Source: an uncultured bacterium
GTDB lineage: Bacteria > Verrucomicrobiota > Kiritimatiellia > RFP12 > UBA1067
Direction of reading: 5' to 3'
Length of the DNA: 57,977 nt
Assembly (NCBI GenBank): GCA_903935195.1
Contig: CAIZQW010000151.1
Coordinates: 1 to 57,977, forward strand
Position numbers and translations under genes: made by a program. Of this stretch, positions 10,741 to 54,847 are shown piece after piece. Each line of letters begins with the position of its first letter. The first letter of the stretch is position 1. The notes under the pieces were generated by a model. That model had not been told where the DNA came from. It saw only the letters and a list, made by a program, of their open reading frames with translations, and did not search any database.

Positions 10741-10824
10741 CCAGCCCTTTCCAATTTGTTAATGTATTGTCGTTCTTACAACAAAGGGACAGACAATTTG
10801 TCTGAAATTGGAAAGGAGCAAGGT

Positions 10825-37663: not shown

Positions 37664-38665
37664 ATGGCTATGAAAAAGTTTTTGAATGATCCGGCAAATA
37701 TCACCAAGGAACTACTGGAGGGAATGACGGCGTGTTATTCGAACAAGGTCAAGTTGGTGAACGAAAAGATTGTGGTCCGTGCAGCGCCGAAATGCGAGTG
37801 CAAGGTGGCGATCGTCTCCCTAGGCGGTACCGGTCATGAACCGGCGATCAGCGGGTTCGTGGGCGAAGGCATGTTAGATGCGAGTGTCGCCGGCGATATC
37901 TTTGCCGCGCCCGGTGCTCCGAAGGTCCTGGAAGCCCTCCGTCTCTTCAAACGTGAAGCAGGTATCATTCTCGTAACCTTGAACCATGCGGGCGACCGTA
38001 TGAGCGCAAACAAGGCCCTTCGTGATGCACAGAAGGAAGGCATCAAGGTCATGGAGATCGTGACGCAAGAAGATATCAGTGCAGGCATTGATATTGATCC
38101 GGAGGAGAAGCGTGGACTCGGAGGTTGCATCCCACTCTTTAAGGTGATCGGTGCCGCTGCAGAGCAGGGCAAAAATATCGATGAGATTTATGAGATCGGC
38201 CAGCGCTTTAACAAGCAGATGGCAACCTTGGCTGTGGCCATGACAGGCTGCACCCATCCTCAAAACGGCGGTGTGATTGCTGTTCTGCCCGAAGATGAAA
38301 TGGAAATCGGCATGGGACAGCACGGCGAAGCCGGTGGCGGACGCAGCAAGATCCTGACGGCTGATGAGACTGCCGCGAAGATGATCGCTCCACTGATGAA
38401 GGCGACTGGCGTGAAGGCAGGCGACGCCGCAATGCTGATCGTCAATGGCGTTGGCGCGACCACCCTCATGGAGATGTTTGTCGTCTACCGTAAGGCTGCG
38501 GCCCTTCTCGCTGAGAAAGGCGTGAAAACGGTTCCTGGCATTTGCGACGAACTGCTGACCGTCCAGGAGATGGCTGGCTTCCAGATGATTCTCTGCAAGC
38601 TGGACCCCGATCATGTCGAGCTCATGAAGGCGACAGCGAACAGCCCGTACTGGACCGTGAATTGA
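37664..38665 (+). CDS. dhaK: Dihydroxyacetone kinase-family substrate-binding subunit
   Basis: MKKFLND, GGTGHEPA, GDIFAAP, NHAGD, EIGMGQHGEAG. Confidence 0.88.
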   Translation: MAMKKFLNDPANITKELLEGMTACYSNKVKLVNEKIVVRAAPKCECKVAIVSLGGTGHEPAISGFVGEGMLDASVAGDIFAAPGAPKVLEALRLFKREAGIILVTLNHAGDRMSANKALRDAQKEGIKVMEIVTQEDISAGIDIDPEEKRGLGGCIPLFKVIGAAAEQGKNIDEIYEIGQRFNKQMATLAVAMTGCTHPQNGGVIAVLPEDEMEIGMGQHGEAGGGRSKILTADETAAKMIAPLMKATGVKAGDAAMLIVNGVGATTLMEMFVVYRKAAALLAEKGVKTVPGICDELLTVQEMAGFQMILCKLDPDHVELMKATANSPYWTVN

Positions 38666-38666
38666 G

Positions 38667-38756
38667 TGGAATAATGGAATGATGGAATAATGGAATAGCA
38701 GGCGTGAGAAAATTTCTTCACCCAACATTCCACTATTCCGCTATTCCAACATTCCA
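38667..38756. repeat. Inverted octamer arrays (TGGAATAA-type x4 / CTATTCCA-type x4) around a small hairpin
   Basis: tggaataa tggaatga tggaataa tggaatag ... acattcca ctattccg ctattcca acattcca. Confidence 0.85.
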
Positions 38757-38774
38757 ATGTATTTAAGGTAACTT

Positions 38775-39389
38775 ATGCTGACATTACAGAAGTTTAAAGA
38801 GATGATGACGGCTGCGGGTGCCGAGATCCGTAAGAGCGAAAAACATTTTTCGGAATTGGATGCCGCGTCGGGTGGTGATGGTGATCATGGTACGGCGATT
38901 GTCACAGCCTTTAATGCGATGGATAAGGTGACCGAGGCGATGTGCTTCAAGCGTTACCTGAAGGCCTTAACTGATACCCTGCAGAATGAGGCTTGCGGTT
39001 CAACCAGCACTCTGTACGGCTCTTGGTTGCAAGGCATGAGCGATGCAGCACCAGAAAAGGTCACGGAACTCGATGCTGCTGGTGTTGCCGCCCTCTTTAA
39101 AGGTGGCTTGGAGGAGATTGGTTTTACCACAAAAGCGCGGGTAGGGGATAAAACCCTGATGGATGCCCTGATCCCTGCAACAGAGGCGCTTTGCGCCGCA
39201 GCAGGCAGTGGTGTTCCCGCGATGTTCAAGGCTGGGGCAGAAGCCGCACTCAAGGGTTCCGAAGCGACGCGCGCGATGCGTGCGAAGTTTGGTCGTGCGA
39301 AAAACTTAGGCGAACGTTCAATCGGGCCTGTTGACGCAGGCTCCGCCTCCATGGCCACAATTTTCGCCGCTTTTTCAAAAGCATTCTAA
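38775..39389 (+). CDS. dhaL: Dihydroxyacetone kinase-family ADP-binding subunit (DAK2 domain)
   Basis: LDAASGGDGDHG, GDKTLMDALIP, GRAKNLGERS, DAGS. Confidence 0.88.
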   Translation: MLTLQKFKEMMTAAGAEIRKSEKHFSELDAASGGDGDHGTAIVTAFNAMDKVTEAMCFKRYLKALTDTLQNEACGSTSTLYGSWLQGMSDAAPEKVTELDAAGVAALFKGGLEEIGFTTKARVGDKTLMDALIPATEALCAAAGSGVPAMFKAGAEAALKGSEATRAMRAKFGRAKNLGERSIGPVDAGSASMATIFAAFSKAF

Positions 39390-39409
39390 TTAGGAAAGGA
39401 TAGACGATT

Positions 39410-40282
39410 ATGGCAGACTTAGATGATATTCGCGATGGTAAGGAGTATGGACTTGGTATTGAACAGAAGAACGAGAAGTATTTCCTTAAAGGCTCGGCCA
39501 ACCTGAACTGGGGCATGAAGGACCGTTTGAGCCGTATCTTCAATCCGAAGACTGGCAACAGCGTGATGCTGGCGTTCGACCATGGCTTTTTAATGGGGCC
39601 AACCTCTGGTTTGGAACGTATTGACCTGACGATCACCCCGCTCATGAAATATGCGGATTGCTTGATGTGCGCGCGCGGGGTTCTGACGGCGTTGGTTCCC
39701 ACGACGCTCCGTAAGCCCGTCTGCTTGCGTTCGGATGCCGGATCAACGATCTTGACCGAGATGAACCACAATGTGGTCATGGATGTCAAGAATGCCGTTG
39801 CCCTGAATGCCTCTGCGATGGCAGTCATGGTCGGTATCGGTGATCCGACGTGCGAAGCTGAAACCGTGGCGAATTTGTATCGCACGGTGGATGCGGCCCA
39901 GCCGTATGGTATTCCTGTCATGGGCGTGACCGCGGTCGGCAAGGACATGGTGCGCGATGCCCGTTATTTCGGACTCGCTGCGCGGGTCTGCGCGGAAAAT
40001 GGAGCCAATATTGTCAAAACTTACTACACCGAGGGCTTTGAGAAGGTTGTGGCGTGCTGCCCGGTGCCTATCGTGATTGCAGGTGGCAAGAAGCTTCCTG
40101 AGCTGGAAGCCCTGGAATTGGCCTATAAAGCCATCCAGAGCGGTGCGGCAGGCGTGGACATGGGACGCAACGTCTTCCAGTCCGATGCCCCTGCAGCCAT
40201 CATCCAAGCGATTGGCGCAGTTGTCCATAAGGGCATGAAGCCAGCTGAGGCACTTCAGATGTTTAACGATCTGAAGAAGTAG
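39410..40282 (+). CDS. lsrF: LsrF-like 3-hydroxy-5-phosphonooxypentane-2,4-dione thiolase (DhnA-type aldolase fold)
   Basis: MADLDDIRDGK, WGMKDRLSRIF, MLAFDHG..MGPT.GLERID, VKTYY, VIAGGKK, GVDMGRN.FQS. Confidence 0.9.
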   Translation: MADLDDIRDGKEYGLGIEQKNEKYFLKGSANLNWGMKDRLSRIFNPKTGNSVMLAFDHGFLMGPTSGLERIDLTITPLMKYADCLMCARGVLTALVPTTLRKPVCLRSDAGSTILTEMNHNVVMDVKNAVALNASAMAVMVGIGDPTCEAETVANLYRTVDAAQPYGIPVMGVTAVGKDMVRDARYFGLAARVCAENGANIVKTYYTEGFEKVVACCPVPIVIAGGKKLPELEALELAYKAIQSGAAGVDMGRNVFQSDAPAAIIQAIGAVVHKGMKPAEALQMFNDLKK

Positions 40283-40339: not shown

Positions 40340-40376
40340 AAAAAGGCTGGGTTTCATTACGAAACCCAGCCTTTTT
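40340..40376. terminator. Bidirectional rho-independent terminator
   Basis: AAAAAGGCTGGGTTTC-attac-GAAACCCAGCCTTTTT between convergent genes. Confidence 0.9.
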
Positions 40377-40397: not shown

Positions 40398-41060
40398 CTA
40401 CAGGTCTTTACCGTAGATTTCGATCTCCGTGTAGTGGTTCATCTCGTTGGAGGTGTTGCCACGGCTGGTGAAACGGACATAACGGCCCTTGACACTGCCG
40501 ATGGCAAAGGGACGTCCTTCATTTGTCTCAATGTACTCCTTGTCCTTGCCCTTGCCAAGCTTGGAAGAGTTATCATGATCATTGTTGAAGACGGTTTGCA
40601 CGCCGTCAATGAAGTCAGGGTCATTTGAGATCTGGCAGACGACATCGCGATAGACGCGAGCTTCGCCGTGGAAGTGCCAGACGCAGGCTGCATCGACCTG
40701 TTTCTCTTTACCGAGATCAATCTGTACCCATTGGGTGTTTGGCCCCAGCTCCACATACGTGGTGGCGTCATGATCCTTATCACCGTCAGTGACGAAGCCA
40801 AGCTCGCCAATGATGGGTTCAGAATCACTGGAGGTGACCTTGCAGCCCTTCGAGATCACTTTTGTTCCTGTTGGGACCTGAATCGGGTCGCGGGGTTTAC
40901 CATTCCGAGCCTCTTCGAGGTTTTCCGTCTTGATGTCTTTTGGGGTTCCTGTAAAGCAAGGCTTGGGAAGCGCGACTTTAAGGGTTTCCTTCTCCTGTGC
41001 TACAGCAGCAATGACCACGCTCGTGGCAAGTGCTACCATTGTCAGTGTTTTGAGGTTCAT
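40398..41060 (-). CDS. Secreted discoidin (F5/8 type C, galactose-binding-like) domain protein
   Basis: Signal peptide; VTDGD, QWVQIDLG, GRYVR, YTEIEIYG. Confidence 0.75.
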   Translation of the reverse strand: MNLKTLTMVALATSVVIAAVAQEKETLKVALPKPCFTGTPKDIKTENLEEARNGKPRDPIQVPTGTKVISKGCKVTSSDSEPIIGELGFVTDGDKDHDATTYVELGPNTQWVQIDLGKEKQVDAACVWHFHGEARVYRDVVCQISNDPDFIDGVQTVFNNDHDNSSKLGKGKDKEYIETNEGRPFAIGSVKGRYVRFTSRGNTSNEMNHYTEIEIYGKDL

Positions 41061-41184
41061 GGTGTCTCTCCTTGTCTGCTTCTTGCGAAGCGTATTGGTT
41101 AGTTAAAATTGTTGGGTAATTATCACACAAGTCCGTGTTGTTTGTCCAGTCAGAATCTATGAATGAAGCGCAGTTATGCAATCA

Positions 41185-42126
41185 CTATTGACGTTCTAAA
41201 AAGTGATACGCTTTTACAGGGGAAATCACCTTGTCCATCCAAAGAGGCTGGTCCCTTGCAAGGAGTGCACCACACCTGGGCAGTTGGTCGCACGTTGCTT
41301 TTATTTCACGCCAGGTCATTGCGAGAAACGATGTTGACAACGCATCTGCCACAGCTGCTGTGGGTGCACAGGACCATGCCCCTGCATGTCGCGATGCTGC
41401 CATTCCTTTTCGAACATCCACAATGTGCAGGCCATTGACATCAAAACCTGAACCGCTGATCGCTGCGTCCTCCAGTCGCACACTGTCCAGTCCAGTACGC
41501 ACCTTCCAATCTCCACCGACGCCGACTGGCCACCCTTTTTGGCCATCTCCCATCGATCCACGTGCTAGAACACTACTCGTTCCGCCATGCATCAAGAAAT
41601 TCGTGAATTCCCACTCACCTAACAGCATATCACATGCCAAGTCTAAAGCGTACCCTTTGCCAATGGCGCCGAAGTCGAGTTCAAGAGGGGTATTGGCTCC
41701 GTTACGATCCGGAGCGACAGCCACGAGATAGTTTTCGGTATCGATGATCAGGCGGTTCATCCCACAGGTGGCAAAGGCTGCATCGAGTTCCGATTGTGTC
41801 AGTCCCTTCCAGCGGTGATTCACCTGCCGCAGCTTGTCCATGACTGTTCCAACCGTGACATCAAAGACGCCTTGGGTCGCTTGGCAGATCTTGGTTGAGA
41901 TCAAGAGGAGCTCCATCATCTCTGGATCTACACGGAAGGTCTCACCTGGTTTCAGATGACTGATGAGAGCCACCTCGCTGACATCAAGAAACCGGCTGAG
42001 GAGATTCTCCAGCCGGTCAATCCGTTCAAATATTTTATGTGCTGCACTGGCTGCAAGTCTCTCCTCTTCGCCGACGATCATCAGCGCGAAGAGGGTAGAC
42101 ATCGCCTTGTGTTCATAGGTGAACAT
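41185..42126 (-). CDS. apbE: FAD:protein FMN transferase (ApbE family), no obvious signal peptide
   Basis: AMSTLF, LSRF..SEV, GVFDVT, LDFGAIGKGYALD, HIVD, ADALST; ATG overlaps the upstream stop (TAATG). Confidence 0.85.
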   Translation of the reverse strand: MFTYEHKAMSTLFALMIVGEEERLAASAAHKIFERIDRLENLLSRFLDVSEVALISHLKPGETFRVDPEMMELLLISTKICQATQGVFDVTVGTVMDKLRQVNHRWKGLTQSELDAAFATCGMNRLIIDTENYLVAVAPDRNGANTPLELDFGAIGKGYALDLACDMLLGEWEFTNFLMHGGTSSVLARGSMGDGQKGWPVGVGGDWKVRTGLDSVRLEDAAISGSGFDVNGLHIVDVRKGMAASRHAGAWSCAPTAAVADALSTSFLAMTWREIKATCDQLPRCGALLARDQPLWMDKVISPVKAYHFLERQ

Positions 42127-44945
42127 TATTCCTTGCGTCCACCAGTGATCAGCATCCACGTGGCGATTGCCAAGAAGGAGAAGGTCACGCAACGATGCAT
42201 CTTGAGCATGATCCACTGCCAGTCAGTACCAAACCACGTCATCATCGGAGCAACTGCGGTGAAGACCACCAAGATGCCGACGATGAGCATGATCATCCAA
42301 ATGGTGTTTCGCTTAGGATTGGTGATCCGCTTGGAACCACGGAACCAGATCAGGGCAAGTAGGCAGGTGGCGAAGAGACCACCGGCCACCATGTGGAAGA
42401 TCAGGACATAACCTGTCATGAGATGCAAGAACCAACCCAGCAAGCCGGAAAGGGCCAAATAGGCGCTTGCCAATATAATGCCCCAAACTGCGCTCGTTTC
42501 AGCTAAAGCCAGGAGGTCTTGGAACTTGGTGTGGCGAGCCCTATAGACTTCTTCACGCTTGAGTAACGCAGGGATGGCAACAGAGATAAAGGCGATAGCC
42601 ACCATGACGACAAAGGCAAAGACCACCCAGAGGAAGATCTTGAAGAGGGGCCTCATCAGGAAGGTCGAACCAAAAAGCTTGTTGTAACTGCTGGAGAGTC
42701 CCATGTAGGCGATCTGGGGCTTGACCAGCTTCTTCGTCGTCAGCAACGGTCCGGTCGATTCGACATTGGCAAAGAAGAACGTGGAGCTCACGGTATGGCA
42801 GTCCGCGCACTTGGCAGGCTTGGCACCACGCGCCATGCGTGCACCCCTGACATCGTGTCCAAAGGACCAGGAGACGGCTTGAGCAGCCTTCTCCTCTTTT
42901 GACTCAAGGGTTCCGTTGGCAGTGAGGGACCACACCTGTCCATGAGCAACATAGACAGTGTCCGCTTTCCCAGCCGCTTTGAGTGTTTTTAACCCTGTCG
43001 CAACCATCTCTTCTGTGATGGAATACTCTGTTCCTGCAAGGATGGTTGCATTTTTGATGACATAGTCAGAGAGGACTGGCTTGAAGGCGCCCTCTTTGTA
43101 CCAGCCAATGGCGATCTGTTCTTTGGGTAATGAGGCTTGTGCGGTGATGACACCATCGCCTTCGCCACCCCGGTAATAAATCTTGCCTTTTAAGATAACT
43201 GCGCCATACCCGTTGCCAATGGCCAAGGGAGAAGCATCCAATGTCTGAAGCAGATTTTTGAGGAACGTCTTCTTCGCTGTCAATTCCTCCTCGACTGCTT
43301 TTCCTGCAGCTGTTTTGACTTTCTGTACTGCCTCTTCTTGTAGGTTCGTGCTACTTGCTTTGTAGGCTTTTTCAGCTACGAGTCCAGCAGCTTCTTTCAG
43401 TTGGGCGAGGTCGGCATCGGGATCAAAATCAGCGACAGCACGGACAAAGGTTCCCTCTGACTTGTACCAGAATCCATCCGCAACCGAAGCCTTGCCGTCG
43501 GGTATCGCAACCGCATCAATGTTTTTCTTGTAGGCTTGTCCATTCGTGACAAAGACCGGGATGCCAGGAATGTTCGGATCCGTGGCTAATGCTTCCAGAA
43601 CAGCGCCAACCTGTTCGCGAACCGTAAGGTCTTGTTTGGCGATCTCCATCACCTTCTCAGGGGTGAGGGGTGTGAGTTTATCACCATTCCGCGTGGCCCA
43701 ATACGAAGGCCAGACCATGCGACGGGGTTCAATCTTGCCCTCTGAATTGCGGACAAAGACTGGTTCCATGATGAAAGGTTGCGGCGTGACCCAGCGGGCG
43801 CGGCCATAGATGCCCATGCGATTTGCACGCGAGGTGCGGACTTGAGCCAATTCACCCTTATCAGTGACGCCGGAGTGGCAGGTGGTGCAGCTGAGTTTGT
43901 CAAAGTGTGTGACAGGAATGCCGACGTGCTTGGGCATGGGCGCACCAAAGCGTCCGGTTTCAGCTCCCTTGCCGCCGAGATGGCATCCAGCGCAGCTTGC
44001 GGTTGCGCGGGTCTTGTCCATCTTACCCGTATTATCACCCAGGTAACCACGGGCTATTCCATGGTCAAGACCATTCGCATGGCAATCTGTACAGGTCATG
44101 CCCGCGCGCAAATGGACATCTCCATCAATGTCTTTGCTGTGCATCCCGACCTGCGTTGTCGAGTGACAGTTCAGGCAGTTCTCATTGCGTGGCTTGCCCA
44201 GTTCCAGGACGGTACGATTCTTAACATCAAATTTGCTCTTGTCGTAGACGACATGAGGGGGTACGGCATAGATGGAATCATCCTTATTGAGTCCCCGCAT
44301 AACACCCCAGTAATCCCCAACGCGTTCGCCCATGCCACGCACGTCACCCAGACCGAGTGCGCCTGTGGCAGCCCAGCGGAAGTTTTGACGCGTGACGAGA
44401 CGTGCCCATTCGCTGTGATCATACGCTTTGTCCGTGCTATGGCAGGCAAAACAGTTGATCTCCATAGTACCAGAGACTTCCCAGCGCGCATGGGGACCGC
44501 CCTCAGCATAGAGATCAACGGGATCAGCGACATCGCCACCTGGCATATTGCGACCAAAGGTGTGGGTCCACTGCCAATTCGACATACCGATGTCAGAGGG
44601 CTTGTAGAGTCCGGGCCAATCGCGCAAGCCCATGGGGATCTGTGAGCCGCTGACCGGGTCAATCAGGAACCAGGGTTGCGCAGGACGTCCGCACGGTGCA
44701 TTCGTCTTGGACATGTTGAAATGCCATCCCCCTGCGATCGTGTCATAATCGTGGCACTGACCGCACGTCTGACGTGTGCTCACGGGCAATACGTTCTGCG
44801 CATCAGGGACGATGAGATCACCAAACTCATCATTGAGGGTCAGGCGGTGTACAGGGAGTACACGCCCGCCATCGTAGTGGGATTCGACGGAGGCAACAGC
44901 CGAGCCTGCTGCAAGGGCAAGTGTAATAAATAGTAAGTTTCGCAT
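42126..44945 (-). CDS. Multiheme c-type cytochrome (7 CxxCH) with C-terminal His-containing transmembrane domain
   Basis: Signal peptide MRNLLFITLALAAGSAVA; CGQCH, CFACH, CLNCH, CTDCH, CAGCH, CTTCH, CADCH; about 4-5 C-terminal hydrophobic helices with FLHL, IFHM and KMHR. Confidence 0.85.
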   Translation of the reverse strand: MRNLLFITLALAAGSAVASVESHYDGGRVLPVHRLTLNDEFGDLIVPDAQNVLPVSTRQTCGQCHDYDTIAGGWHFNMSKTNAPCGRPAQPWFLIDPVSGSQIPMGLRDWPGLYKPSDIGMSNWQWTHTFGRNMPGGDVADPVDLYAEGGPHARWEVSGTMEINCFACHSTDKAYDHSEWARLVTRQNFRWAATGALGLGDVRGMGERVGDYWGVMRGLNKDDSIYAVPPHVVYDKSKFDVKNRTVLELGKPRNENCLNCHSTTQVGMHSKDIDGDVHLRAGMTCTDCHANGLDHGIARGYLGDNTGKMDKTRATASCAGCHLGGKGAETGRFGAPMPKHVGIPVTHFDKLSCTTCHSGVTDKGELAQVRTSRANRMGIYGRARWVTPQPFIMEPVFVRNSEGKIEPRRMVWPSYWATRNGDKLTPLTPEKVMEIAKQDLTVREQVGAVLEALATDPNIPGIPVFVTNGQAYKKNIDAVAIPDGKASVADGFWYKSEGTFVRAVADFDPDADLAQLKEAAGLVAEKAYKASSTNLQEEAVQKVKTAAGKAVEEELTAKKTFLKNLLQTLDASPLAIGNGYGAVILKGKIYYRGGEGDGVITAQASLPKEQIAIGWYKEGAFKPVLSDYVIKNATILAGTEYSITEEMVATGLKTLKAAGKADTVYVAHGQVWSLTANGTLESKEEKAAQAVSWSFGHDVRGARMARGAKPAKCADCHTVSSTFFFANVESTGPLLTTKKLVKPQIAYMGLSSSYNKLFGSTFLMRPLFKIFLWVVFAFVVMVAIAFISVAIPALLKREEVYRARHTKFQDLLALAETSAVWGIILASAYLALSGLLGWFLHLMTGYVLIFHMVAGGLFATCLLALIWFRGSKRITNPKRNTIWMIMLIVGILVVFTAVAPMMTWFGTDWQWIMLKMHRCVTFSFLAIATWMLITGGRKE

Positions 44946-44961
44946 AGTGAATATCCTGTTA

Positions 44962-44994
44962 GTCAGACATGTCAGACAGGTCGGACCTGTCTGA
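44962..44994. repeat. GTCAGACAT-type nonamer array forming a palindrome
   Basis: gtcagacat gtcagacag gtcggacct gtctga; TCAGACAGGTC-g-GACCTGTCTGA. Confidence 0.7.
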
Positions 44995-45014
44995 ACTATT
45001 GGGCTCCTCAATTC

Positions 45015-46370
45015 TTACACGTGAAAATCTTCTGGCTTGAAATAGATGGTCTTGCGCTGTGCAACCGAATCATTTGCCGCCAAAACAGCCACAGCTGATT
45101 CGTAGGCCAGCAGGGCAGGGCAGTTCAATGCTTCCGGTTTATTCTTACGCACGGCAAAGAAGAAGTTTTCAAGGTGAGGCATGTGAGCCGGCTTGAGCAG
45201 GTCCACAGGCAATGGCCACCCATCCGCTTGCGCCGAGACACGCGCATCAATCGCAACCTTGGTTGTGACTTCACGCGCAACGGTCTTCTTCGGCTGAACA
45301 ACGAGACCCTTCTGAGCATAGAGCGCCCAGGCATTTTCATCAGGGGCGCCTGCGCGGATTTCGCGCTGGACGGTGTTACCGCGTGCAGAGATCTCCGAGA
45401 TGGTCAGGGAGCCATTTTCACCCATGAACTGCTCATAGAAGCCGCCACGGCTGGAGGTCGTGAGCACCTGATAATAGGCGCGGTTAATCTTGCCCTCTTT
45501 TGTCTTAAATTCATACATGGCCATGACATTGTCGTTCATCTGGCGGTCATAGTAATCGTTACCGCCAATGGCCGTGACAGAGATCGGTTGGCAATCCCAG
45601 ACCCAGAAGAAGAGGTCAATCTGGTGCGAGCCAAGATCCACCATGGGTCCGCCGCCGTACTTGGAGAACCAACGCCAATTGAGGAACTGCTCCATGTTCT
45701 CGTAGCCATACTTCTGCAAGGTTTCAAGGGCAATCGGTTTCTTGACCGTCAGGAACGGTGCAACGGAACGATTCCATTGAGCATAGGCGTGCGTGACGCG
45801 TCCGAGCATGTTTTCCTTGCGGATCACATTGTTGAAAGCGTGCATGTAACGCGGATTCGAACGGCGCTGATGGCCGATCTGAAGAATTTTACCGGTCTCG
45901 CGTTGGCAGAGCACCATCTCTTTGGCCTTGGCAAGCTGATTGGACATCTCTTTTTCGCAATAGACATGCTTGCCAGCGCGTAGGCAGGCGCAGGTGTGTT
46001 CTGCATGCATCCAGTCGGGTGTCGCAATGATCACGGCATCAAAATTCTTGCCCTCTTTGTCCAGCATCTCACGGTAATCTTCATAGGTGGTGACCTCATG
46101 GCCGAGGGAGCGCATACGCCCTTTAGCCAATTGACGGCGAAGCAACCACACGTCGCAGACTGCTGTGAAGCGGACGCCTGGAATCTTCATGGCGGCATCG
46201 CAGAGGATTTCACCTTCAGCACCGTACCCGATCACAGCGACCTTGATGTCATCATCTTTAGGGCCGATGGTCATGCCGTTTTGCTGACTCAGAATGTTGA
46301 AGGTTGGCAGGAAGGTCGCTGCTGCTGCGCTTCCCTTGAGGAATGTTCTGCGGTTAAATGTTGTGTTCAT
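45015..46370 (-). CDS. Tat-exported Gfo/Idh/MocA NAD(P)-dependent oxidoreductase
   Basis: NRRTFLK twin-arginine signal; VIGYGAEG, IATPDWMH, HVYCEKEM, QIGHQRRS, GGPMVDLGSHQID. Confidence 0.92.
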   Translation of the reverse strand: MNTTFNRRTFLKGSAAAATFLPTFNILSQQNGMTIGPKDDDIKVAVIGYGAEGEILCDAAMKIPGVRFTAVCDVWLLRRQLAKGRMRSLGHEVTTYEDYREMLDKEGKNFDAVIIATPDWMHAEHTCACLRAGKHVYCEKEMSNQLAKAKEMVLCQRETGKILQIGHQRRSNPRYMHAFNNVIRKENMLGRVTHAYAQWNRSVAPFLTVKKPIALETLQKYGYENMEQFLNWRWFSKYGGGPMVDLGSHQIDLFFWVWDCQPISVTAIGGNDYYDRQMNDNVMAMYEFKTKEGKINRAYYQVLTTSSRGGFYEQFMGENGSLTISEISARGNTVQREIRAGAPDENAWALYAQKGLVVQPKKTVAREVTTKVAIDARVSAQADGWPLPVDLLKPAHMPHLENFFFAVRKNKPEALNCPALLAYESAVAVLAANDSVAQRKTIYFKPEDFHV

Positions 46371-46432
46371 GGTTTTTTCTCCTAGCGGACAACCTCAGAG
46401 GCCATCCAGACAGTGTGTTAGTTCCTTTGTTC

Positions 46433-48058
46433 TTACATCCGGGTGTAACGTGGACCGTCTCCGCCTTGCGGGAAGTTCCACTCGATATTGAGATAGGGGT
46501 CCTTGACTTGACAGGTCTTGCAATGCAAACAGTTCGAGAAGTCAATGTGAACATGTCCCTCTTCCACCCTATAAACCTCGGCCGGGCAGAAACGTTGGCA
46601 GGGGGCTCCATACTTGAGGAGGCACTCCCGGCATGTGGCACGATCCTTAATCTTTAAGTGGCACGGCTGATCTTCATCATGAATCGTGCCAGACATGAAG
46701 ACGTCGGTCAAACGGTCAGGTGAAGTAGGGGTCGCAGGGAGTGATTGAGGAGGAGGAAGCTTGCCGCCCTTGAGGGGGTGTAGCTCCTCATGATCAGGCG
46801 ACATTTTTACCATCCAGAAGGGCAGGAGCCCCTTCAATGCCCAAGCCAGTCCAGCACTCATGACGCCTAAACCAAGGAATGTGGAGAAGGGTGCACGAAC
46901 ATTTTTCACGCGCCTCAGTTGTTTCCACCCGGAGGTCGCTTTTAGACGCTTGGTATAAGGCTTGAGGGCCTCGTAAGAAAAATCATTGGCATTCCAGCAG
47001 GCAGCTAGGGTCTGGGCTGCAGCGACGCCGGACTGCATACTGATGTGTACACCTTTGATACGAAGTGTGTCCACGAGTCCCGCTCCGTCCCCAACGATCA
47101 GTGCACCGTCTGCAACGACTTCCGGCACGGAGTAGTATCCACCTTCAGGGATCACTTTGGCGCCGTATGCGACCGACTTGCCGCCAGCGATGTGCTGGGC
47201 GACCGACGGGTGCCTCTTGAAGAGTCGGAAGAGGGTATGCGGATCCTTCTCTGGTTGCGTGTAGTCCAAGGCGTAGGCGTAACAGATCATCACCTGGGTC
47301 GCTGAGACGTGATAAACGAAGCCACCGCCGTACGTTGACCAGTCTGCCGGATATCCGAAGGTGTGGTCAATCTCGCCAGCCCGTTCTTCGTTGGCTGGCA
47401 CTTCAATAACTTCCTTGATGCCGAGTGCGTAGGATTGATCGCCGCGCAGGCTGTAGAGACCCTTGCTTTTAATCAGTTTCTCAGTCAGGATGCCGCAACC
47501 CCCTTCGCCCAGAACCACGGTCTTGGCGTAAATGGCTTCGCCTGGCAGGTGGTTCTCTTTGGGTTTACCGTCACGGTCAACACCCTTCGCGCCCGTGCGC
47601 GCCCCGATGATGCGACCCTTGGCGTCCTCAATCAGTTCCGTCACTGCAAAGCTGGTAAAGATCTGGGCTCCCTCTTTTTCACAGAGCTGAGCAAAGTATT
47701 GTGTGAGCTTGGTCAGGGAGCCCACTGGGAAACCATGAGCTTGCATCATCGGCGGAACCCAGGGAATCTTCATCGCAATCTTCTTGTTAAAGAGCATGTG
47801 GAACGATTCCTTGGTCACACGCGCTTCAATGGGCATCTTCGCGATTTCCTCGGGTGTCAGCAAACCTTCAAAACCTTCGGGGTCAATCACTGCGCCAGAG
47901 AGAATATGGTTGCCGATGCTGCGGCTCTTTTCAACAATGGTCACACGAGGCAACTTCTTTCCTTGAGCCTTCAGTGTGCGTAAGAGAGATAGGGCTGTTG
48001 AGAGCGACGCGATGCCCGCTCCAATGCACAGAATGTCAGTCTCTAATTTTTTGGCCAT
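46433..48058 (-). CDS. ETF:quinone oxidoreductase (FixC+FixX-like fusion)
   Basis: IGAGIA, HILSGAV, GIKE, HTFGYP, YGAKVIPEGG, GDGAG, KGVH; C-terminal CQRFCPAEVY...NCLHCKTCQVKDP...WNFPQGGDGPRY. Confidence 0.92.
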   Translation of the reverse strand: MAKKLETDILCIGAGIASLSTALSLLRTLKAQGKKLPRVTIVEKSRSIGNHILSGAVIDPEGFEGLLTPEEIAKMPIEARVTKESFHMLFNKKIAMKIPWVPPMMQAHGFPVGSLTKLTQYFAQLCEKEGAQIFTSFAVTELIEDAKGRIIGARTGAKGVDRDGKPKENHLPGEAIYAKTVVLGEGGCGILTEKLIKSKGLYSLRGDQSYALGIKEVIEVPANEERAGEIDHTFGYPADWSTYGGGFVYHVSATQVMICYAYALDYTQPEKDPHTLFRLFKRHPSVAQHIAGGKSVAYGAKVIPEGGYYSVPEVVADGALIVGDGAGLVDTLRIKGVHISMQSGVAAAQTLAACWNANDFSYEALKPYTKRLKATSGWKQLRRVKNVRAPFSTFLGLGVMSAGLAWALKGLLPFWMVKMSPDHEELHPLKGGKLPPPQSLPATPTSPDRLTDVFMSGTIHDEDQPCHLKIKDRATCRECLLKYGAPCQRFCPAEVYRVEEGHVHIDFSNCLHCKTCQVKDPYLNIEWNFPQGGDGPRYTRM

Positions 48059-48080
48059 AGTGTAAATTCCTTAAGGGTGG

Positions 48081-49277
48081 CTAGCTTTTGGATTCCAGTG
48101 CATCAATCAGAAGCGGAACGATTTCAAACAAGTCACCGACGATGCCCAGGTCCGCCACGCCAAAGATGGGCGCGTTTGGATCGGAGTTGATGGCGATAAT
48201 CGTGTCAGAAGCACGCATGCCCTCCAGATGTTGAATCGCACCAGAGATGCCAATCGCGATATAGATCTTCGGGCAGACGGTCTTTCCTGTCTGTCCAACC
48301 TGTCGGGCGGCGGTTGTCCAGCCCGCATCAACGCAGGCGCGTGAGACACCGACCACACCGCCGATGAGCTTGGCCAGTGTTGAGAGCATCTCCATGTTCT
48401 CAGCCTTCTTAAGACCGCGTCCACCTGCGATGATGATTTCCGCCTCGGCGATGTTGAGAGTTGAGGTGCTATGCTCGGCTTTGATAATTTTGGTCCGTGC
48501 TGTCATGAGCTTCAGCGCTTCAATGAGCGTCTCACCTGTACGTTTGGCATCCGGAGCCGCCATCTTAAAGACCTTGGGACGGACCGTCGCCATTTGCGGG
48601 CGATGGTTGGGCGTCATGATCGTGGCCATGATGTTGCCACCGAAGGCCGGACGCGTCTGGTGGAGGAGGTAAGTCTCCTTGTCAATCGAGAGGGCCGTGC
48701 AATCTGCTGTCAAACCGGTATGTGCGCGAACGGCTACCTTGGCAATAAAGGCGCGTCCAATCGCCGTTGCGCCCGCAAGGATCACCTCGGGTTTGTACTT
48801 GGCAATCAATTGGTGGAGTGCATCAGAGTAGACATCTGCTTCATACGCGGCGAGTTCCGGCTGATCAACAATATAAACGCGGTCAGCACCCGCAGCAATG
48901 AGATGTGAGGCAGAGTCTTTGATGTTGTGTCCGAGAACCACGGCCGCCAAATCACAGCCGCGCTCTTTTGCCAGACGGCGACCGGTTGCCAAGAGTTCGT
49001 ACGCGACCTCTTGGACTTTTCCGTCATGCTGCTCGGCAAAGACCCAGATATCCTTAAACGCTGCGAGACCTGTTGGATTTGAATCTGTCTTTTCAGGTGC
49101 GCTTGAGATCGCCTTGAAGGGGCAGACCTTGACGCAGGCGTTACAGGCACGACACTCTTCTGGTTTAAGAACAGCGAGCTTGCCCTGCATCTCCAGTGCG
49201 TCGAAGGGACAGGCTGTGATACATTTCTTGCAGCCCTTGCACAGGACGGGGTCAATAATGATTGGTGCATCACTCAT
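48081..49277 (-). CDS. etfA: Electron transfer flavoprotein alpha subunit with N-terminal 2x[4Fe-4S] ferredoxin domain
   Basis: CKGCKKCITACP and CRACNACVKVCP; TGLTADCT, RPAFGGN, QVGQTGK, GISGAIQH. Confidence 0.95.
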   Translation of the reverse strand: MSDAPIIIDPVLCKGCKKCITACPFDALEMQGKLAVLKPEECRACNACVKVCPFKAISSAPEKTDSNPTGLAAFKDIWVFAEQHDGKVQEVAYELLATGRRLAKERGCDLAAVVLGHNIKDSASHLIAAGADRVYIVDQPELAAYEADVYSDALHQLIAKYKPEVILAGATAIGRAFIAKVAVRAHTGLTADCTALSIDKETYLLHQTRPAFGGNIMATIMTPNHRPQMATVRPKVFKMAAPDAKRTGETLIEALKLMTARTKIIKAEHSTSTLNIAEAEIIIAGGRGLKKAENMEMLSTLAKLIGGVVGVSRACVDAGWTTAARQVGQTGKTVCPKIYIAIGISGAIQHLEGMRASDTIIAINSDPNAPIFGVADLGIVGDLFEIVPLLIDALESKS

Positions 49278-49280
49278 GAA

Positions 49281-50072
49281 TTAGGCAACCCCCTTGTCTT
49301 GCAATAGTTTAATAATCGCCTCGACAGCAACTTTGGGCTCCTCGCGGCCATCCATGCGCATCCCGCCTGTCTTCACAGGGGGAGCAAAAATCTTGACAAC
49401 CTTTGTCGGGGACCCATTGAGTCCGCATAAGGCAGGTTCGGCATTGACATCGTTGGCGCCCCATTTAGGGATGTCTGCCTTTTTGGCGATCATCCAGCCA
49501 CCTAAGCTTGCAAACCGTGGCGTAGAAGCTTCCTTGACGACCGTCATGACGGCGGGCAACTTTCCTTCAATGACATCCGTGCCCTCATCCATGTGCGTCT
49601 CGACAATAAAGGTGTCACCCTTGATTTCAAGGGCTTTCACGTAGGTGATGAGGGTATAGTTCAAAAATTCGGATACGCCAGGTCCAACTTGGGCGGTGTC
49701 CCCGTCAATGGCCTGTTTGCCGAAAAAGACGAGGTCAGGGTTGGGGTTGATTTTTTTGATCGCTTGTGCAATGGCGTAAGAGGTTGCCCAGGTGTCAGCA
49801 CCTGCAAAGGCACGGTCTGTCAGCAACACGCCGTCATCAGCGCCTCGTGCCATGGCTTCGCGCAGGACGATATCGGCTTGTGGGGGACCCATCGTGATGA
49901 CCGTCACGCGAGCGCCATGCTTATCCTTTAATTTGAGAGCCTCTTCCAATGCGTATTCATCATACGGATTGATGATGCTTTCAACGCCCTCGCGTATCAA
50001 TGTATTCGTCTCCGGATTGATACGAACATTGGTCGTGTCCGGAACTTGCTTTACGCAAACGATAACATGCAT
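49281..50072 (-). CDS. etfB: Electron transfer flavoprotein beta subunit
   Basis: CVKQVPDT, NPYDEYALE, DRAFAGADTWATS, GKQAIDGDTAQVGP, GSPTKV. Confidence 0.96.
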   Translation of the reverse strand: MHVIVCVKQVPDTTNVRINPETNTLIREGVESIINPYDEYALEEALKLKDKHGARVTVITMGPPQADIVLREAMARGADDGVLLTDRAFAGADTWATSYAIAQAIKKINPNPDLVFFGKQAIDGDTAQVGPGVSEFLNYTLITYVKALEIKGDTFIVETHMDEGTDVIEGKLPAVMTVVKEASTPRFASLGGWMIAKKADIPKWGANDVNAEPALCGLNGSPTKVVKIFAPPVKTGGMRMDGREEPKVAVEAIIKLLQDKGVA

Positions 50073-50288: not shown

Positions 50289-51863
50289 ATGGTTGATAAC
50301 AGGAAATTCTACTCGGCATCAGGCACAACAGAGGGGCAGACGCGACAGGCACCCTCTCTTGGCTCTTTGGGCATGCTGGCACTTTTGCCCTTTGTGTTTC
50401 TCTTTCTTGTGGTCGGCGGATCGCTCTGGTGGTGGTATGGGTGGCGGATTGAGCCGGAAAACGGAAAATTTGCTGTTCTAATGAAGAAAACAGGCAAAAA
50501 TCTGCCTGCGGATCAGATCATCGCACCCTCCTTGGATTACAAGGGCGTTCAGCTGGATGTCTTGCCGGAAGGACGTTTCTTCTATAATCCGTACGTGTGG
50601 GACTGGAAGATCGAAAAGACGATTGATATTCCCGCAGGCAAGTTTGGTGTCCTAGTCCGGAAGTTTGGCAAGAATCTCTCCGGCGGAGAGATCATCGCCA
50701 AAGATAACACCTACAAAGGCATCGTGCGAGAGGTGTTAGGCACGGGCAAACATCGTGTTAATCCTTATGCGTATGAAATCAAGCTTTTCAATGATATCAA
50801 GATCGCACCTGGACATGTCGGTGTGGTGACGGCGTTGTGTGGTAATGATATTCTAAATAATGATGCCAAAGGATCGAATATTTCAAAAAAATTCCTGGTC
50901 GCGCCTGGCGAAAAAGGTGTGCAGCCCGATGTTTTGAAAGAAGGAACGCATCGTCTGAATCCGTACCTTAATGCGGTCTCTATTGTGAATATTCAGAGTC
51001 AGCGGTTTGAGCTGAGCGGGGCAGATGCCATTTCGTTTTTGACGCTGGATGGCTTCCCGATCACGGTGGAGGGCACCTTGGAGTTCAATTTGAATGTTAC
51101 GAAGGTGGCTCAGCTCACCCACGAGGTCGGCGATATGGATGATATCATGCAAAAACTCATCCTTCCTAGCGCACGTGGATTCTCCCGGTTGGAGGGGAGC
51201 AAGAAGAACGCGACAGACTTCATTGTCGGCCAATCTCGCCAAGTCTTCCAGAACAACCTCGAATCCTATCTGCAGTCGGTTTGCTCACCATGGGGTATCT
51301 CCATCAACTCGGTTTTGGTGCGTGATATTATCGTTCCTCAGCAAATCGCCTCGGTGATTAGAGATCGTGAACTGGCAGCCCAAGAGGGAAAAATGCTTGA
51401 ACAGCAAACTTTTCAAGCCATATCCCAAGGGGAGCTGGGAAAACAGAAGGCCCTTGCAGAACAGAACCGTATGACCGTTTCAGCGGAAACAGAGAAGATC
51501 CGTCAGACCATTTCGGCACAGCAGAAACAAATGGAGAAGACCATTGCCGCGCAGACAGAGCTCGAAGTTGCTAAGATCGCTCTACAGACGGCGAAGGCAG
51601 ATGCTGAGTCGCTCCTGAAGATTGCCGAAGCAGAGCGTAAGGTGGTGGAAGCTCAGAATAAAGCCACGGCGGATGTGCTTCGTCAGCAGGTCACGGTCTA
51701 TAAGAGTGAGGCGGATTATATTCGTGCAAAACTCTATGAAAAGACGGCGCCGCGTGTCGAGAGTGTTTTGACAACAGACAATGGCGGCGGCCTCTTCGGT
51801 CTGCCACTCCAGTCAACGCAAGAGATGAAGGGCGAAGCGATGAAGAAAGAGGTGACACCATGA
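50289..51863 (+). CDS. Large SPFH/band-7 domain membrane protein (subunit 1)
   Basis: N-terminal TM; three VLxxGxxxxNPY repeats; TLDGF.I.VEG SPFH core; C-terminal AE-rich coiled coil. Confidence 0.8.
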   Translation: MVDNRKFYSASGTTEGQTRQAPSLGSLGMLALLPFVFLFLVVGGSLWWWYGWRIEPENGKFAVLMKKTGKNLPADQIIAPSLDYKGVQLDVLPEGRFFYNPYVWDWKIEKTIDIPAGKFGVLVRKFGKNLSGGEIIAKDNTYKGIVREVLGTGKHRVNPYAYEIKLFNDIKIAPGHVGVVTALCGNDILNNDAKGSNISKKFLVAPGEKGVQPDVLKEGTHRLNPYLNAVSIVNIQSQRFELSGADAISFLTLDGFPITVEGTLEFNLNVTKVAQLTHEVGDMDDIMQKLILPSARGFSRLEGSKKNATDFIVGQSRQVFQNNLESYLQSVCSPWGISINSVLVRDIIVPQQIASVIRDRELAAQEGKMLEQQTFQAISQGELGKQKALAEQNRMTVSAETEKIRQTISAQQKQMEKTIAAQTELEVAKIALQTAKADAESLLKIAEAERKVVEAQNKATADVLRQQVTVYKSEADYIRAKLYEKTAPRVESVLTTDNGGGLFGLPLQSTQEMKGEAMKKEVTP

Positions 51864-53681: not shown

Positions 53682-54767
53682 TTATTCCGCTTCGCTCCAA
53701 CGAGCGTTATTATCTTTGGCGCTGATGACTCTTGAAATGAATTGTTTTTGCCCAATAGGTGTTAATCGTTTAGCGATACCCGGTGTGCAGAGCAGTGTTA
53801 GCTTTTCGGGGTTGTCAGGTATCCAGATGGCTTCACACCCTGGATAATGCTTCAGAAAGGCAACGCCTGCTTCAGGCCCAAGGACAAAGAGGGTCGTCGA
53901 AAGGGCGTCTGCTAACATCGCTGACGGTGCCACAACGGTGACGCCTGCCATTCCTGTCACCGGACGTCCCGTGCGTACATCCATGATATGCCCGTATCGT
54001 TTATTCGCGATCTCTACAAACCGCTCGTAATTCCCGGATGTTGCGACCGCTTCGCCGTTCGTCATCAGAAACTGGGCTGTGCAACTTCCGTCGACAAAAG
54101 GATTTCGAATGCCCGTGCGCCAGCCTCCACGTCCAGGCGAGGCCTCTCCTATCGCACGGAGATTGCCCCCGAGGTCGATCAGCGCGTTGGTAGTCCCGAC
54201 CTGCGTCAGCGTGTTGTACGCGAGATCAACGGCGTATCCCTTGGCAATAGCCCCGAGATCAAGTTTCATGCCGGGGTGTGGCAGGTAGAGTCTCACGGGT
54301 GTTGATGTGGGATAAAATTGAATGCGATGCCAGTCAGCCAGTTTCCGAGCTTCTTGGAGGGCCTCTTCGGATGAAAGCGCTGATGGTGCACGTTCCTGGG
54401 TAAACCCCCAGAAGGACATGAGTGAGCCGGCAAGGGGATTAAAGGCCCCGTCGCTCGCTTCGGCTATTTGAAGCGCTGCAGCCACCAGTGTTGCAACTTC
54501 TGGAGAGAGAGGCGTCAATTCGTTTTTGCCAGCAGCTTGATTGAGGCGTGAGAGCTCGCTGGTCTCTTGCCAGGTTGAAAAAAGTGTGTTGACCCGTTCA
54601 AAGAGGGGCTGTATGAGTTCCCGTCCCTTTTTTGCCTCCTCCATAGATTGTGCTTGGATGGCGGCAACCGTTCCCATCGTGAACCATTGGGATCGCGCAA
54701 CCGCTGGTCCTGAGCCACAGCCTGTCGCAGTAAGGAGGAGCGCCGCCACGGCTAGCGTTCGGGTCAT
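53682..54767 (-). CDS. apbE: FAD:protein FMN transferase (ApbE), lipoprotein
   Basis: Lipobox ATGC; TMGT, DLGAIAKGYAVD, DLGGN, ATSGNYER, HIMD, ADALST. Confidence 0.93.
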   Translation of the reverse strand: MTRTLAVAALLLTATGCGSGPAVARSQWFTMGTVAAIQAQSMEEAKKGRELIQPLFERVNTLFSTWQETSELSRLNQAAGKNELTPLSPEVATLVAAALQIAEASDGAFNPLAGSLMSFWGFTQERAPSALSSEEALQEARKLADWHRIQFYPTSTPVRLYLPHPGMKLDLGAIAKGYAVDLAYNTLTQVGTTNALIDLGGNLRAIGEASPGRGGWRTGIRNPFVDGSCTAQFLMTNGEAVATSGNYERFVEIANKRYGHIMDVRTGRPVTGMAGVTVVAPSAMLADALSTTLFVLGPEAGVAFLKHYPGCEAIWIPDNPEKLTLLCTPGIAKRLTPIGQKQFISRVISAKDNNARWSEAE

Positions 54768-54847
54768 TGGTCGTACCTTCTCATGGGGGCTATATTGTCT
54801 CACGCTATTCCAGTATTTAGTCATTCTGGTAAAAGGATGCAGGCATA

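Follow-up and report, generated by a model that had tools for sequence, protein, structure and literature searches.

Introduction

Exported oxidoreductases of the Gfo/Idh/MocA family are very numerous in glycan degraders of the Verrucomicrobiota, Planctomycetota and Acidobacteriota. Their NAD(P)H is tightly bound, and by what route it is oxidised again where no free NAD is available has long been a puzzle. In enzymes of the type of Zymomonas GFOR and the glycoside 3-dehydrogenase DgpA, a second substrate regenerates the bound cofactor, and no cytochrome partner is known. Here I analyse a row of seven genes in which such an exported dehydrogenase is encoded together with a heptahaem membrane cytochrome, an ApbE-family protein, a discoidin-type protein and the genes of a bifurcating-type electron-transfer flavoprotein (Etf) with its quinone oxidoreductase (ETF-QO). 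The row lies in contig CAIZQW010000151.1 of an uncultured bacterium of the Kiritimatiellia; "the window" below means the whole stretch of DNA that was analysed, 57,977 bases of about 53% G+C.

Several described systems resemble parts of this row. In FdnGHI and HyaABC, a catalytic subunit exported by the twin-arginine translocation (Tat) pathway works with an electron-wire subunit and with a quinone-reducing four-helix cytochrome b of the PF01292 family, an arrangement that the module studied here would share; FdnI uses four histidine ligands for two b-haems. Geobacter CbcL, to which the cytochrome studied here can be likened by description only, is an inner-membrane multihaem c-type domain fused to a HydC/FdnI-type cytochrome b; its electron exchange is with the quinone pool. 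It serves extracellular electron transfer by oxidising quinol, has nine c-haems and two haems in its b domain, and is not known to have a dehydrogenase, ApbE or carbohydrate-binding module (CBM) partner. In EtfABCX/FixABCX (Thermotoga maritima, 7koe), a bifurcating-type EtfAB likewise stands beside a membrane-associated flavoprotein quinone reductase, and the lactate dehydrogenase/Etf complex that contains LctC works by confurcation.

The locus departs from each of these. Where FdnGHI and HyaABC have a molybdo- or NiFe enzyme as head and an Fe-S protein as wire, the module here has an NAD(P)-type Gfo/Idh/MocA protein and a heptahaem cytochrome c; its membrane part holds two invariant histidines, suggesting one b-haem, and genes of the apbE and CBM32 types accompany it. 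GFOR, DgpA and the BT_2158 family of glycoside 3-dehydrogenases share the Gfo/Idh/MocA fold with the module enzyme, and GFOR also shares its Tat export, but the similarity is confined to the Rossmann half, and a cytochrome partner is known for the module only. Unlike in EtfABCX, the quinone reductase of the neighbouring unit is one mitochondrial-type ETF-QO, and EtfA carries an extra ferredoxin domain, as CarE and LctC do. I read the row as two quinone-linked electron-transfer units in one co-directional arrangement, a periplasmic Gfo dehydrogenase:quinone module joined to an EtfABCX-like unit, and put the probability of this reading at about 0.5.

Results and discussion

The gene row and its conserved core

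Seven consecutive open reading frames (ORFs) occupy the minus strand between 40398 and 50072, and their Pfam identities make them, in order of reading, etfB, an etfA with a ferredoxin domain, ETF-QO, gfo, the cytochrome gene, apbE and the discoidin gene; in NCBIfam all seven proteins stay below the model cut-offs. With the cytochrome start placed at 44945, the first intergenic gaps are 3, 22, 62 and 69 bp, and the cytochrome stop and apbE start overlap as TAATG, read directly in the sequence. The gap upstream of the discoidin gene is wider (124 bp) and contains a promoter-like site on the minus strand (41148-41119; 10 of 12 hexamer matches, extended TG). The row ends at a two-way intrinsic terminator (40340..40376, both strands), a hairpin with a 16-pair stem and T runs on each side, placed to serve both convergent genes, and nothing comparable to it occurs between the seven genes. 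An earlier note on this DNA had listed the same genes, order, strand and coordinates, the same spacing and the strong terminator, all of which are borne out.

How far this arrangement extends was examined with a cytochrome profile built from 15 homologs, which found at least 526 related stretches in a collection of species-representative genomes; the best 80 loci form the basis of what follows. Synteny was counted from tblastn matches of the window proteins, because ORF calling was disturbed by long antisense frames in G+C-rich loci, and a flank of at least 1.5 kb upstream (for gfo) or 2.5 kb downstream (for apbE) was required. A Tat-type gfo stands immediately upstream of the cytochrome in all 71 informative loci, its match ending 3-421 bp before the cytochrome match. 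Of 56 loci, 54 have apbE downstream of the cytochrome, 48 of them at a distance of no more than 2.5 kb; the discoidin gene is downstream in 46 of 52. The conserved core consists of gfo, the seven-haem cytochrome gene, apbE and the discoidin gene. That Gfo and ApbE belong with the cytochrome agrees with what the earlier note had supposed; the discoidin gene, which it had seen in the row and left at the margin, is in fact a member of the core module.

The names on the cytochrome homologs are Kiritimatiellae or Kiritimatiellia, and loci with the module are labelled Kiritimatiellia, Pontiellaceae (two isolates), Aminicenantes/Acidobacteriota, Victivallales, Phycisphaerae and Planctomycetaceae. Pontiella's family carries the core module, and near-identical DNA to that of the window is present in lake-water metagenomes. 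The labels of metagenome-assembled genomes are unreliable in this group: public records file near relatives of one Kiritimatiellia lineage (L002, L005, L008, L022, L064 and others) as Akkermansia, Lentisphaeraceae, Bdellovibrionota or Eubacteriales.

More distant loci add genes on both sides. Upstream are found a HEAT-repeat protein, a second Gfo, a xylose-isomerase-like barrel, a 3-keto-disaccharide hydrolase and ThuA; after the discoidin gene, a gene for a PMT_2/GT-C membrane protein follows in 20 loci and a GT2 gene in 3. These neighbours suggest keto-sugar chemistry on glycans. Searches of the open-access literature found no published description of the core module, and the accessible parts of ApbE reviews, of the Pontiella description (PMC7356697) and of a lake-metagenome preprint do not mention it.

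Type and linkage of the Etf genes

The Etf is encoded by etfB (49281..50072, minus strand; PF01012, 160.9 bits) and by etfA (48081..49277, minus strand), whose product begins with a 2x[4Fe-4S] ferredoxin domain (Fer4 families, residues 6-66) followed by PF01012 (165 bits) and PF00766 (117.4 bits). The relatives compared were CarDE, the Etfs of C. difficile and A. fermentans, T. maritima EtfABCX and LctBC; CarE and LctC have the ferredoxin domain in common with EtfA here. Among solved complexes, EtfA scores 403 bits against CarE (6fah_A, over residues 12-395, ferredoxin domain included) and 300, 292 (7koe_B), 281 (LctC) and 280 bits against the other four of five bifurcating complexes, with human and bacterial ETFs at 150 bits or less (human ETF-alpha, 150). 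EtfB behaves in the same way, with 258 bits against CarD, 257 against 5ol2_B, 241 against 4kpu_B, 238 against 7koe_A and down to 186 for bifurcating relatives, compared with 109 or less for all others (human ETF-beta, 109). A DGDTAQVGP-like stretch in EtfB presumably fits the same type. By these sequence relationships EtfAB is of the bifurcating type, as the earlier note had stated.

The same note had set the locus beside EtfAB with FixCX-type partners; the partner here is of another type. ETF-QO (46433..48058, minus strand; PF05187, 108.5 bits; PF21162, the quinone-binding domain, 93 bits; DAO) is a single 541-residue protein with quinone-binding and 4Fe-4S domains according to Pfam. Its alignment to pig ETF-QO (2gmh) spans the entire protein and scores 338 bits, against 100 bits for T. 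maritima FixC and 61 for FixX, and the genome has a single copy of the gene. It is the canonical fused type, with no separate FixC and FixX; a fused ETF-QO may work like EtfABCX all the same. The absence of an acyl-CoA dehydrogenase nearby, remarked on earlier, extends to the genome, which is 92% complete and contains no convincing member of that family (best match 25.7 bits over 60 profile positions). For this reason an EtfABCX-like link between NADH, ferredoxin and menaquinone would be the simplest role for the unit.

The join between this unit and the core module is narrower than the module itself. ETF-QO stands upstream of gfo in 19 of the 59 loci with at least 3.3 kb of upstream sequence, and the cytochromes of all 19 are at least 46% identical to that of the window. 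A FastTree phylogeny of 40 rows was built from all full-length cytochrome matches of at least 46% identity, the window and six chosen outgroups, other distant rows being left out. In this tree the linked state occurs in 22 of the 31 informative rows of one Kiritimatiellia clade of 34 (support 100), including its deepest branch, and the unlinked rows are nested. The most economical account of the tree would be one gain of the Etf link and at least three losses within the clade. The matches of ETF-QO and gfo end 23-71 bp apart in 20 of 21 linked loci. The co-occurrence of Etf with the module that the earlier note had raised therefore holds within this clade and fails in all more distant loci.

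Of 301 genomes sampled evenly from the class, 30 have the cytochrome, about 69 a strong ETF-QO match and 16 both; ETF-QO is adjacent in 4 of these 16. Genus g3 presents a rearranged form: its single module-type gfo abuts etfB-etfA-ETF-QO in all three genomes, and in the two genomes examined for it the cytochrome and apbE lie on another contig without gfo. A further sugar link for the Etf genes is seen in one locus of this genus (L086, G095:C24, 4016-5793), where genes for a GtrA-like membrane protein and an aldose 1-epimerase precede etfB-etfA-ETF-QO-gfo.

In metatranscriptome data from three studies, assembled contigs match the row with at least 99% identity; parts of the row have no coverage in single runs, to which no weight is given. 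Contigs from two studies bridge ETF-QO and gfo (45872-46744 and 46306-46559), one bridges gfo and the cytochrome (44846-45644) and two bridge apbE and the discoidin gene (40629-41586 and 40949-41413). Contig depth is 70-113 over the discoidin gene and, among the contigs listed, about 2-10 over the genes upstream of it, except for 18 in the 3' half of apbE. So high a depth argues that the discoidin signal, at least, comes from RNA, and it agrees with the promoter-like site (41119-41148), for which the difference in depth is a weak hint.

Because the Etf link is old and kept in the clade, because gfo stays with etf in g3 and because RNA-library contigs cross from ETF-QO to gfo, the link appears to be more than an accident. 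It is narrower than the core module, but it is not chance.

The heptahaem cytochrome

The cytochrome gene (42126-44945, minus strand; PF14522, 41.6 bits) encodes seven CXXCH motifs. The listed ORF extends to 45011, and the homologs, which are 905-940 residues long, begin at its M23, so that 44945 is the most likely start. In 72 cytochrome sequences the seven CXXCH motifs and seven further histidines are invariant, which is enough for seven bis-His haems. Residues 1-390 (43776..44945) comprise a Sec signal and six of the seven c-haem sites, recognised by CXXCH motifs and PF14522, with the motifs at C61, C165, C257, C285, C318 and C353 and histidines H33, H75, H278, H295, H340 and H347 invariant in the same 72 sequences. 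Residues 386-705 (42831..43790) form, in the AlphaFold 2 (AF2) model, a non-haem periplasmic domain, and residues 706-939 (42129..42830) hold the seventh c-haem site (C713-H717) and five predicted membrane helices, delimited by the model and by homology to a separate membrane protein described below. The seven-haem membrane cytochrome of the earlier note stands in its seven CXXCH motifs, with the amendment that it also has a non-haem domain of 320 residues and a C-terminal five-helix membrane part that is probably b-type.

The AlphaFold model of the full protein (predicted local distance difference test, pLDDT, 79; predicted template modelling score, pTM, 0.75) places the haem region at residues 30-390, a confident non-haem domain at about 390-700, the seventh haem site at 713-717 and the membrane helices at 752-933, so that haem 7 would lie about 35 residues ahead of the membrane part. 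Folded alone with AF2, the non-haem domain of about 320 residues reaches a pLDDT of 91 and a pTM of 0.84 and is modelled as a pair of alpha/beta repeats that flank a variable helical hairpin. Neither Pfam (E up to 10) nor Foldseek (E 0.001 or better) gives a match for it, and its best VIA row (Z 6.6 over 52 residues) covers the helical hairpin only, so that it has no clear structural relative in these searches; a new fold is not claimed. Genus g5 (G181/G197; L097, 8686-10578) has a cytochrome shortened to about 630 residues, without the central non-haem domain and with no gfo or apbE adjoining.

For the full cytochrome model, too, Foldseek gives no match at E 0.001 or better, and the only weak rows with high probability are HyaC and FdnI. 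The ESM Atlas offers leads only, with values of 0.78 and 0.76 for the membrane part (the second from a PF01292 cluster) and no more than 0.81 for the central domain. In 17 distant loci the cytochrome has about 780 residues, and a gene for a separate four-helix protein of about 225 residues lies between the cytochrome gene and apbE. This separate protein is homologous to the C-terminal part of the window cytochrome (hhalign 99.3%, E 2e-20), and 12 of 13 such proteins list PF01292, one of them above the cut-off (33.9 bits against 30.1).

Structural comparison of the modelled membrane part gives FdnI (1kqg_C) as the top row, with Z 10.0, a root-mean-square deviation (rmsd) of 4.3 and 136 residues aligned, and CybB (5oc0_A) with Z 9.7, rmsd 3.4 and 126 residues; both lie below Z of about 13, under which structural scores are not decisive for helical bundles. 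In the model the last four of the five helices form a cytochrome-b-like bundle. Two histidines of the membrane part, at residues 851 and 917, are invariant in the split and the fused forms alike, and the model places each of them in that half of its helix which faces the periplasm; a third is conserved in at least 90% of the fused forms. The membrane part is probably a one-haem b-type domain near c-haem 7 and the likely point of contact with quinone, with the haem and the quinone site both putative.

The Gfo dehydrogenase and its ApbE partner

The product of gfo (45015..46370, minus strand; PF01408, 67.7 bits; PF22725; PF02894) begins with a leader in which RRTFLK is read directly, and the Pfam TAT_signal model scores 22.1 bits, just below its cut-off of 22.7. 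RRxF[LIVMF] is kept in 48 of 57 Gfo orthologs; of the others, two starts are mis-called and seven of the Pontiellaceae type have N-R-[NT]-x-F. These seven (L044, L045, L052, L054, L057, L058 and L067) would have an unusual single-arginine leader, if Tat is still used. Residues G48, G50, G53, E139, K140, D245 and H249, which cover the GxGxxG motif, the EKE lysine and D-x3-H, are invariant in 36 orthologs. The best solved relatives, DgpA (7xr9, 72 bits) and GFOR (about 46 bits), match over the Rossmann half only, and the best NCBIfam row, BT_2158_fam (NF058561), scores 83.3 bits against a cut-off of 750 and covers the N-terminal half only, so that by this measure the protein falls outside that family. 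A predicted complex of Gfo with the discoidin protein scored 0.03 and 0.00, values that are uninformative in either direction.

The apbE gene (41185..42126, minus strand; PF02424, 123.5 bits) encodes a protein that shares the ApbE domain and the hallmark motifs of ApbE flavin transferases (AMxT, KGxAxD, SGSG, the catalytic His and DALST, kept in 41 orthologs) and differs from them in having no motif-bearing neighbour, in a deletion of 8 residues after the SG motif relative to five canonical copies, and in its fusions to Tat-Gfo and GT-C proteins. In the window and 41 orthologs the protein starts about ten residues before the conserved domain, and a hydrophobic leader or lipobox, sought by eye, is present in 0 of these 42. 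An L-x-G-C lipobox is present in the five canonical second copies, one of which is encoded in the window at 53682-54824 (minus strand, 276.6 bits), 3.6 kb upstream of etfB, the other four being its orthologs. The targets of this second ApbE are probably Rnf/Nqr subunits.

The canonical flavinylation target is D-x-x-[ST]-G-A-[ST] (accessible part of PMC12052999). In the 80 loci and the window this strict motif occurs in 0 of 77 Gfo proteins, 0 of 73 cytochromes, 0 of 41 discoidin proteins, 0 of 17 membrane proteins, 0 of 48 ApbE proteins, 0 of 20 GT-C proteins and in no Etf. With neither an export signal nor a recognisable target motif, the role of flavinylator of redox proteins that the earlier note had assumed for this ApbE is not upheld in that form. 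Signal-less cytosolic ApbEs are known, for example in Klebsiella pneumoniae (same source, same part), and large flavinylation surveys, as described in the accessible part of bioRxiv 10.1101/2021.01.07.425746, kept only clusters with a predicted signal peptide; the module cluster may therefore have been missed.

A search for longer relatives of the module ApbE gave 20 proteins, namely 10 PMT/PMT_2-ApbE, 3 ApbE-Gfo and 6 ApbE-Nramp fusions and 1 partial sequence. In the ApbE-Gfo fusions a signal-less ApbE is followed by an internal twin-arginine motif with an Ala-rich stretch and then by Gfo, and in P0129 the alignment of the Gfo part with the window Gfo begins at that motif and reaches the C-terminus (29% identity, E 7e-46). 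Since ApbE precedes the Tat motif in these proteins, it would lie on the cytoplasmic side of the Tat signal. Among metagenome contigs found with one ApbE-Gfo fusion, a signal-less ApbE and a Tat-Gfo relative are adjacent or fused in frame in 16 of the 37 loci of at least 5.5 kb. None of the 37 has a match to the cytochrome, the discoidin protein, the membrane protein or GT-C, and their neighbours include TonB-dependent receptors, GH20 and a GntR regulator. The ApbE-Gfo pair is thus wider than the cytochrome module, and the fusions together with this pairing beyond the module suggest that ApbE most likely acts on the Gfo enzyme. The six fusions of ApbE to an Nramp metal transporter are P0133-P0137 and P0139.

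The discoidin protein

The last gene of the row (40398..41060, minus strand) encodes a secreted CBM32/discoidin-type protein (PF00754, 29.6 bits against a cut-off of 28.2; PF22633, 29.7 bits against 27.8) whose best solved relative is the CBM32 of AlyQ (E 0.0017). The window protein has a Sec-type leader, and a signal-like N-terminus is found in 40 of 41 orthologs. It is the best conserved member of the module, 70-82% identical where the cytochrome is about 60% identical. The whole discoidin unit, with the invariant peptide at its N-terminus, is also part of 303 longer proteins; it is found there in tandem repeats and in fusions with a xylose-isomerase-like barrel or a 3-keto-disaccharide hydrolase. 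I read the protein as a glycan-binding accessory, with sugar binding predicted from its family, and not as a redox carrier. The invariant G-T-P of the N-terminal peptide had made it a candidate for a flavinylated carrier; this is unlikely, since the unit recurs as repeats and as an appendage of keto-sugar enzymes and the motif is non-canonical.

Large proteins of Planctomycetota and Phycisphaerae (P0141, P0143, P0164 and others) carry the unit in tandem arrays with an LPKPxFxGTPK-type peptide. The unit is also fused to formylglycine-generating-enzyme, deacetylase and amidase domains.

A proposed pathway and its alternatives

The gene identities, synteny, fusions and presence in RNA libraries described above can be joined into the following pathway. 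The Tat-exported, NAD(P)-type Gfo enzyme would oxidise a substrate that is probably a sugar or glycoside, and its electrons would pass, if the direction is as proposed, to the seven bis-His c-haems of the dedicated membrane-anchored cytochrome. From haem 7 beside the membrane they would enter the C-terminal FdnI/CybB-like part, with one putative b-haem near the periplasmic face, and reach menaquinone as the presumed acceptor. The signal-less ApbE-family protein may mature the Gfo enzyme, and the CBM32-like protein would bind the glycan. In the cytoplasm, the bifurcating-type Etf and ETF-QO would link NADH, ferredoxin and menaquinone in an EtfABCX-like manner. The two units, which would have been joined once in one Kiritimatiellia family, have mostly stayed joined and are probably co-expressed, would make no direct contact and would meet at the menaquinone pool, which I infer they share and for which cytochrome bd would be one outlet. 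The genome encodes CydA, a CcsA-type cytochrome c assembly protein, two [FeFe]-hydrogenase large subunits and one Rnf/Nqr D subunit. Pontiella makes MK-6 to MK-9, according to the accessible part of PMC7356697.

A number of results weigh against this pathway. On the periplasmic side, a donor of hydride such as NAD(P)H needs a converter, for instance a flavin, to feed one-electron haems. The association of ApbE with Gfo suggests a flavin at this hydride-to-haem step, though the target motif is absent. The fusions of PMT_2/GT-C to ApbE would put ApbE in the periplasm if the membrane protein has 11 helices, which clashes with a cytoplasmic site; crude hydropathy gives 7 to 10 helices per protein, and the family average fits 11 by the positive-inside rule. 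Pfam gives no match (E up to 10) for the membrane domain of the window cytochrome itself, its structural Z of 10 is below the decisive range, and it has two invariant histidines where a di-haem domain of the FdnI type has four. MqnA was not found and a MenA-like protein reaches 71 bits against a cut-off of 102, in a genome whose 92% completeness keeps this from being evidence of absence. As regards the join, the ETF-QO link occurs in 0 of 30 loci whose cytochrome is below 46% identity, it has probably been lost at least three times within the clade, 13 of the 30 cytochrome carriers in the sample of the class have no ETF-QO match (eight of them from one genus), and about 53 of the 69 genomes with a strong ETF-QO match have it without the module, often solitary. 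The low-depth parts of the RNA-library contigs may represent DNA, and a bridging contig is not proof of one transcript.

The adjacency might instead have no functional meaning, the Etf and ETF-QO being an independent housekeeping unit that arrived beside the module in an ancestor and was kept there by descent. ETF-QO is widespread in the class without the module, the link is absent outside one clade and was lost several times inside it, and an SPFH gene pair and the second ApbE gene are likewise conserved among the closest relatives only. I consider simple descent improbable, given that the link persists down to 46% cytochrome identity, that the intergenic gaps are tight, that gfo remained with etf after the rearrangement in all three g3 genomes and that RNA-library contigs span the gap between ETF-QO and gfo. 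The retention of gfo beside etf where the cytochrome has moved away would also suit a different arrangement of the same parts, in which Etf and ETF-QO run in reverse, so that menaquinol from the module and reduced ferredoxin together reduce NAD+; sugar could then be oxidised in the periplasm without a terminal acceptor, the NADH leaving as H2 or fermentation products. EtfA resembles LctC, from a complex that works by confurcation (281 bits), and the genome looks fermentative, since it encodes two [FeFe]-hydrogenase large subunits and one Rnf/Nqr D subunit and has no convincing acyl-CoA dehydrogenase as a partner for Etf. Lake Kiritimatiellaeota are described, in the accessible part of bioRxiv 10.1101/2020.04.01.018762, as polysaccharide-degrading obligate fermenters with cyd, Rnf and group A hydrogenases. 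From the potentials of NADH, ferredoxin and menaquinone (accessible part of PMC10734219), I estimate that the reverse reaction is feasible at physiological ratios only, being uphill at standard potentials. Cytochrome bd offers an ordinary outlet for quinol, and the module is independent of ETF-QO in the 13 of 30 carriers without a match to it. I regard confurcation as an unlikely alternative. A more elaborate version is a long shot: the signal-less ApbE would attach FMN, or another group derived from FAD, at a non-canonical site of the folded Gfo before or during Tat export, giving a hitherto unknown kind of NAD(P)-plus-flavin dehydrogenase that feeds single electrons to the haems. In this Kiritimatiellia family, Etf confurcation with reduced ferredoxin would then return menaquinol to NADH, so that a strict fermenter could oxidise glycans in the periplasm without a terminal acceptor.

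The module might also have no catabolic role, and modify or mature an envelope glycan or glycoprotein, with Gfo, GT-C, GT2 and ApbE acting on one target, or run as a reductase fed by quinol. The PMT_2/GT-C genes after the discoidin gene in 20 distant loci, the GT2 genes in 3, the 10 proteins in which ApbE is fused to a GT-C protein and the GT-C homolog kept elsewhere in the window's genome would all suit an envelope role. In the window's clade, however, that GT-C gene is unlinked and stands among housekeeping genes, and the neighbours and fusions in general are catabolic keto-sugar enzymes, TonB-dependent receptors and GH20; as for a reductase, reducing bound NAD(P)+ from menaquinol is strongly uphill (accessible part of PMC10734219). 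I regard either form as very unlikely.

Should the proposed pathway of two units joined at menaquinone be correct, a dedicated cytochrome c/b partner, present in at least 526 stretches, would give one answer to how exported Gfo/Idh/MocA enzymes have their NAD(P)H re-oxidised, and the module would add a new class of respiratory dehydrogenase. The ApbE-Gfo fusions would point to an unrecognised maturation step and perhaps to a new class of ApbE substrate. The Etf link, if functional, would bring the oxidation of sugars in the periplasm together with flavin-based bifurcation or confurcation, and this in bacteria that have until now been taken for plain fermenters; bacteria of this kind dominate anoxic lake water. 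The clade-wide Etf/ETF-QO link, the rule that the module ApbE is signal-less, the ApbE-Gfo and ApbE-GT-C fusions, the lack of a canonical target and the RNA-library evidence are new points, and the presence of the core module in cultured Pontiellaceae makes it testable.

Neighbouring genes

Between etfB and the second ApbE gene lies the SPFH/Band-7 gene pair (50289-53653, plus strand), and this arrangement of the pair with the second ApbE is kept in L002, L018, L022 and L023. On the other side of the row, convergent with the discoidin gene and kept in the closest relatives, 37664-40282 (plus strand) encodes a dihydroxyacetone kinase (Dak1, Dak2) and a DeoC/LacD-type aldolase. Further away, at 7536-10232 and 15639-17165, are genes for an Fe-alcohol dehydrogenase, a DAO protein resembling glycerol-3-phosphate dehydrogenase and an FGGY kinase. 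Together with the kinase and aldolase genes, these might process triose products of sugar cleavage. An ORF at 10756-11847 (plus strand) contains an IS200-like Y1 transposase domain.

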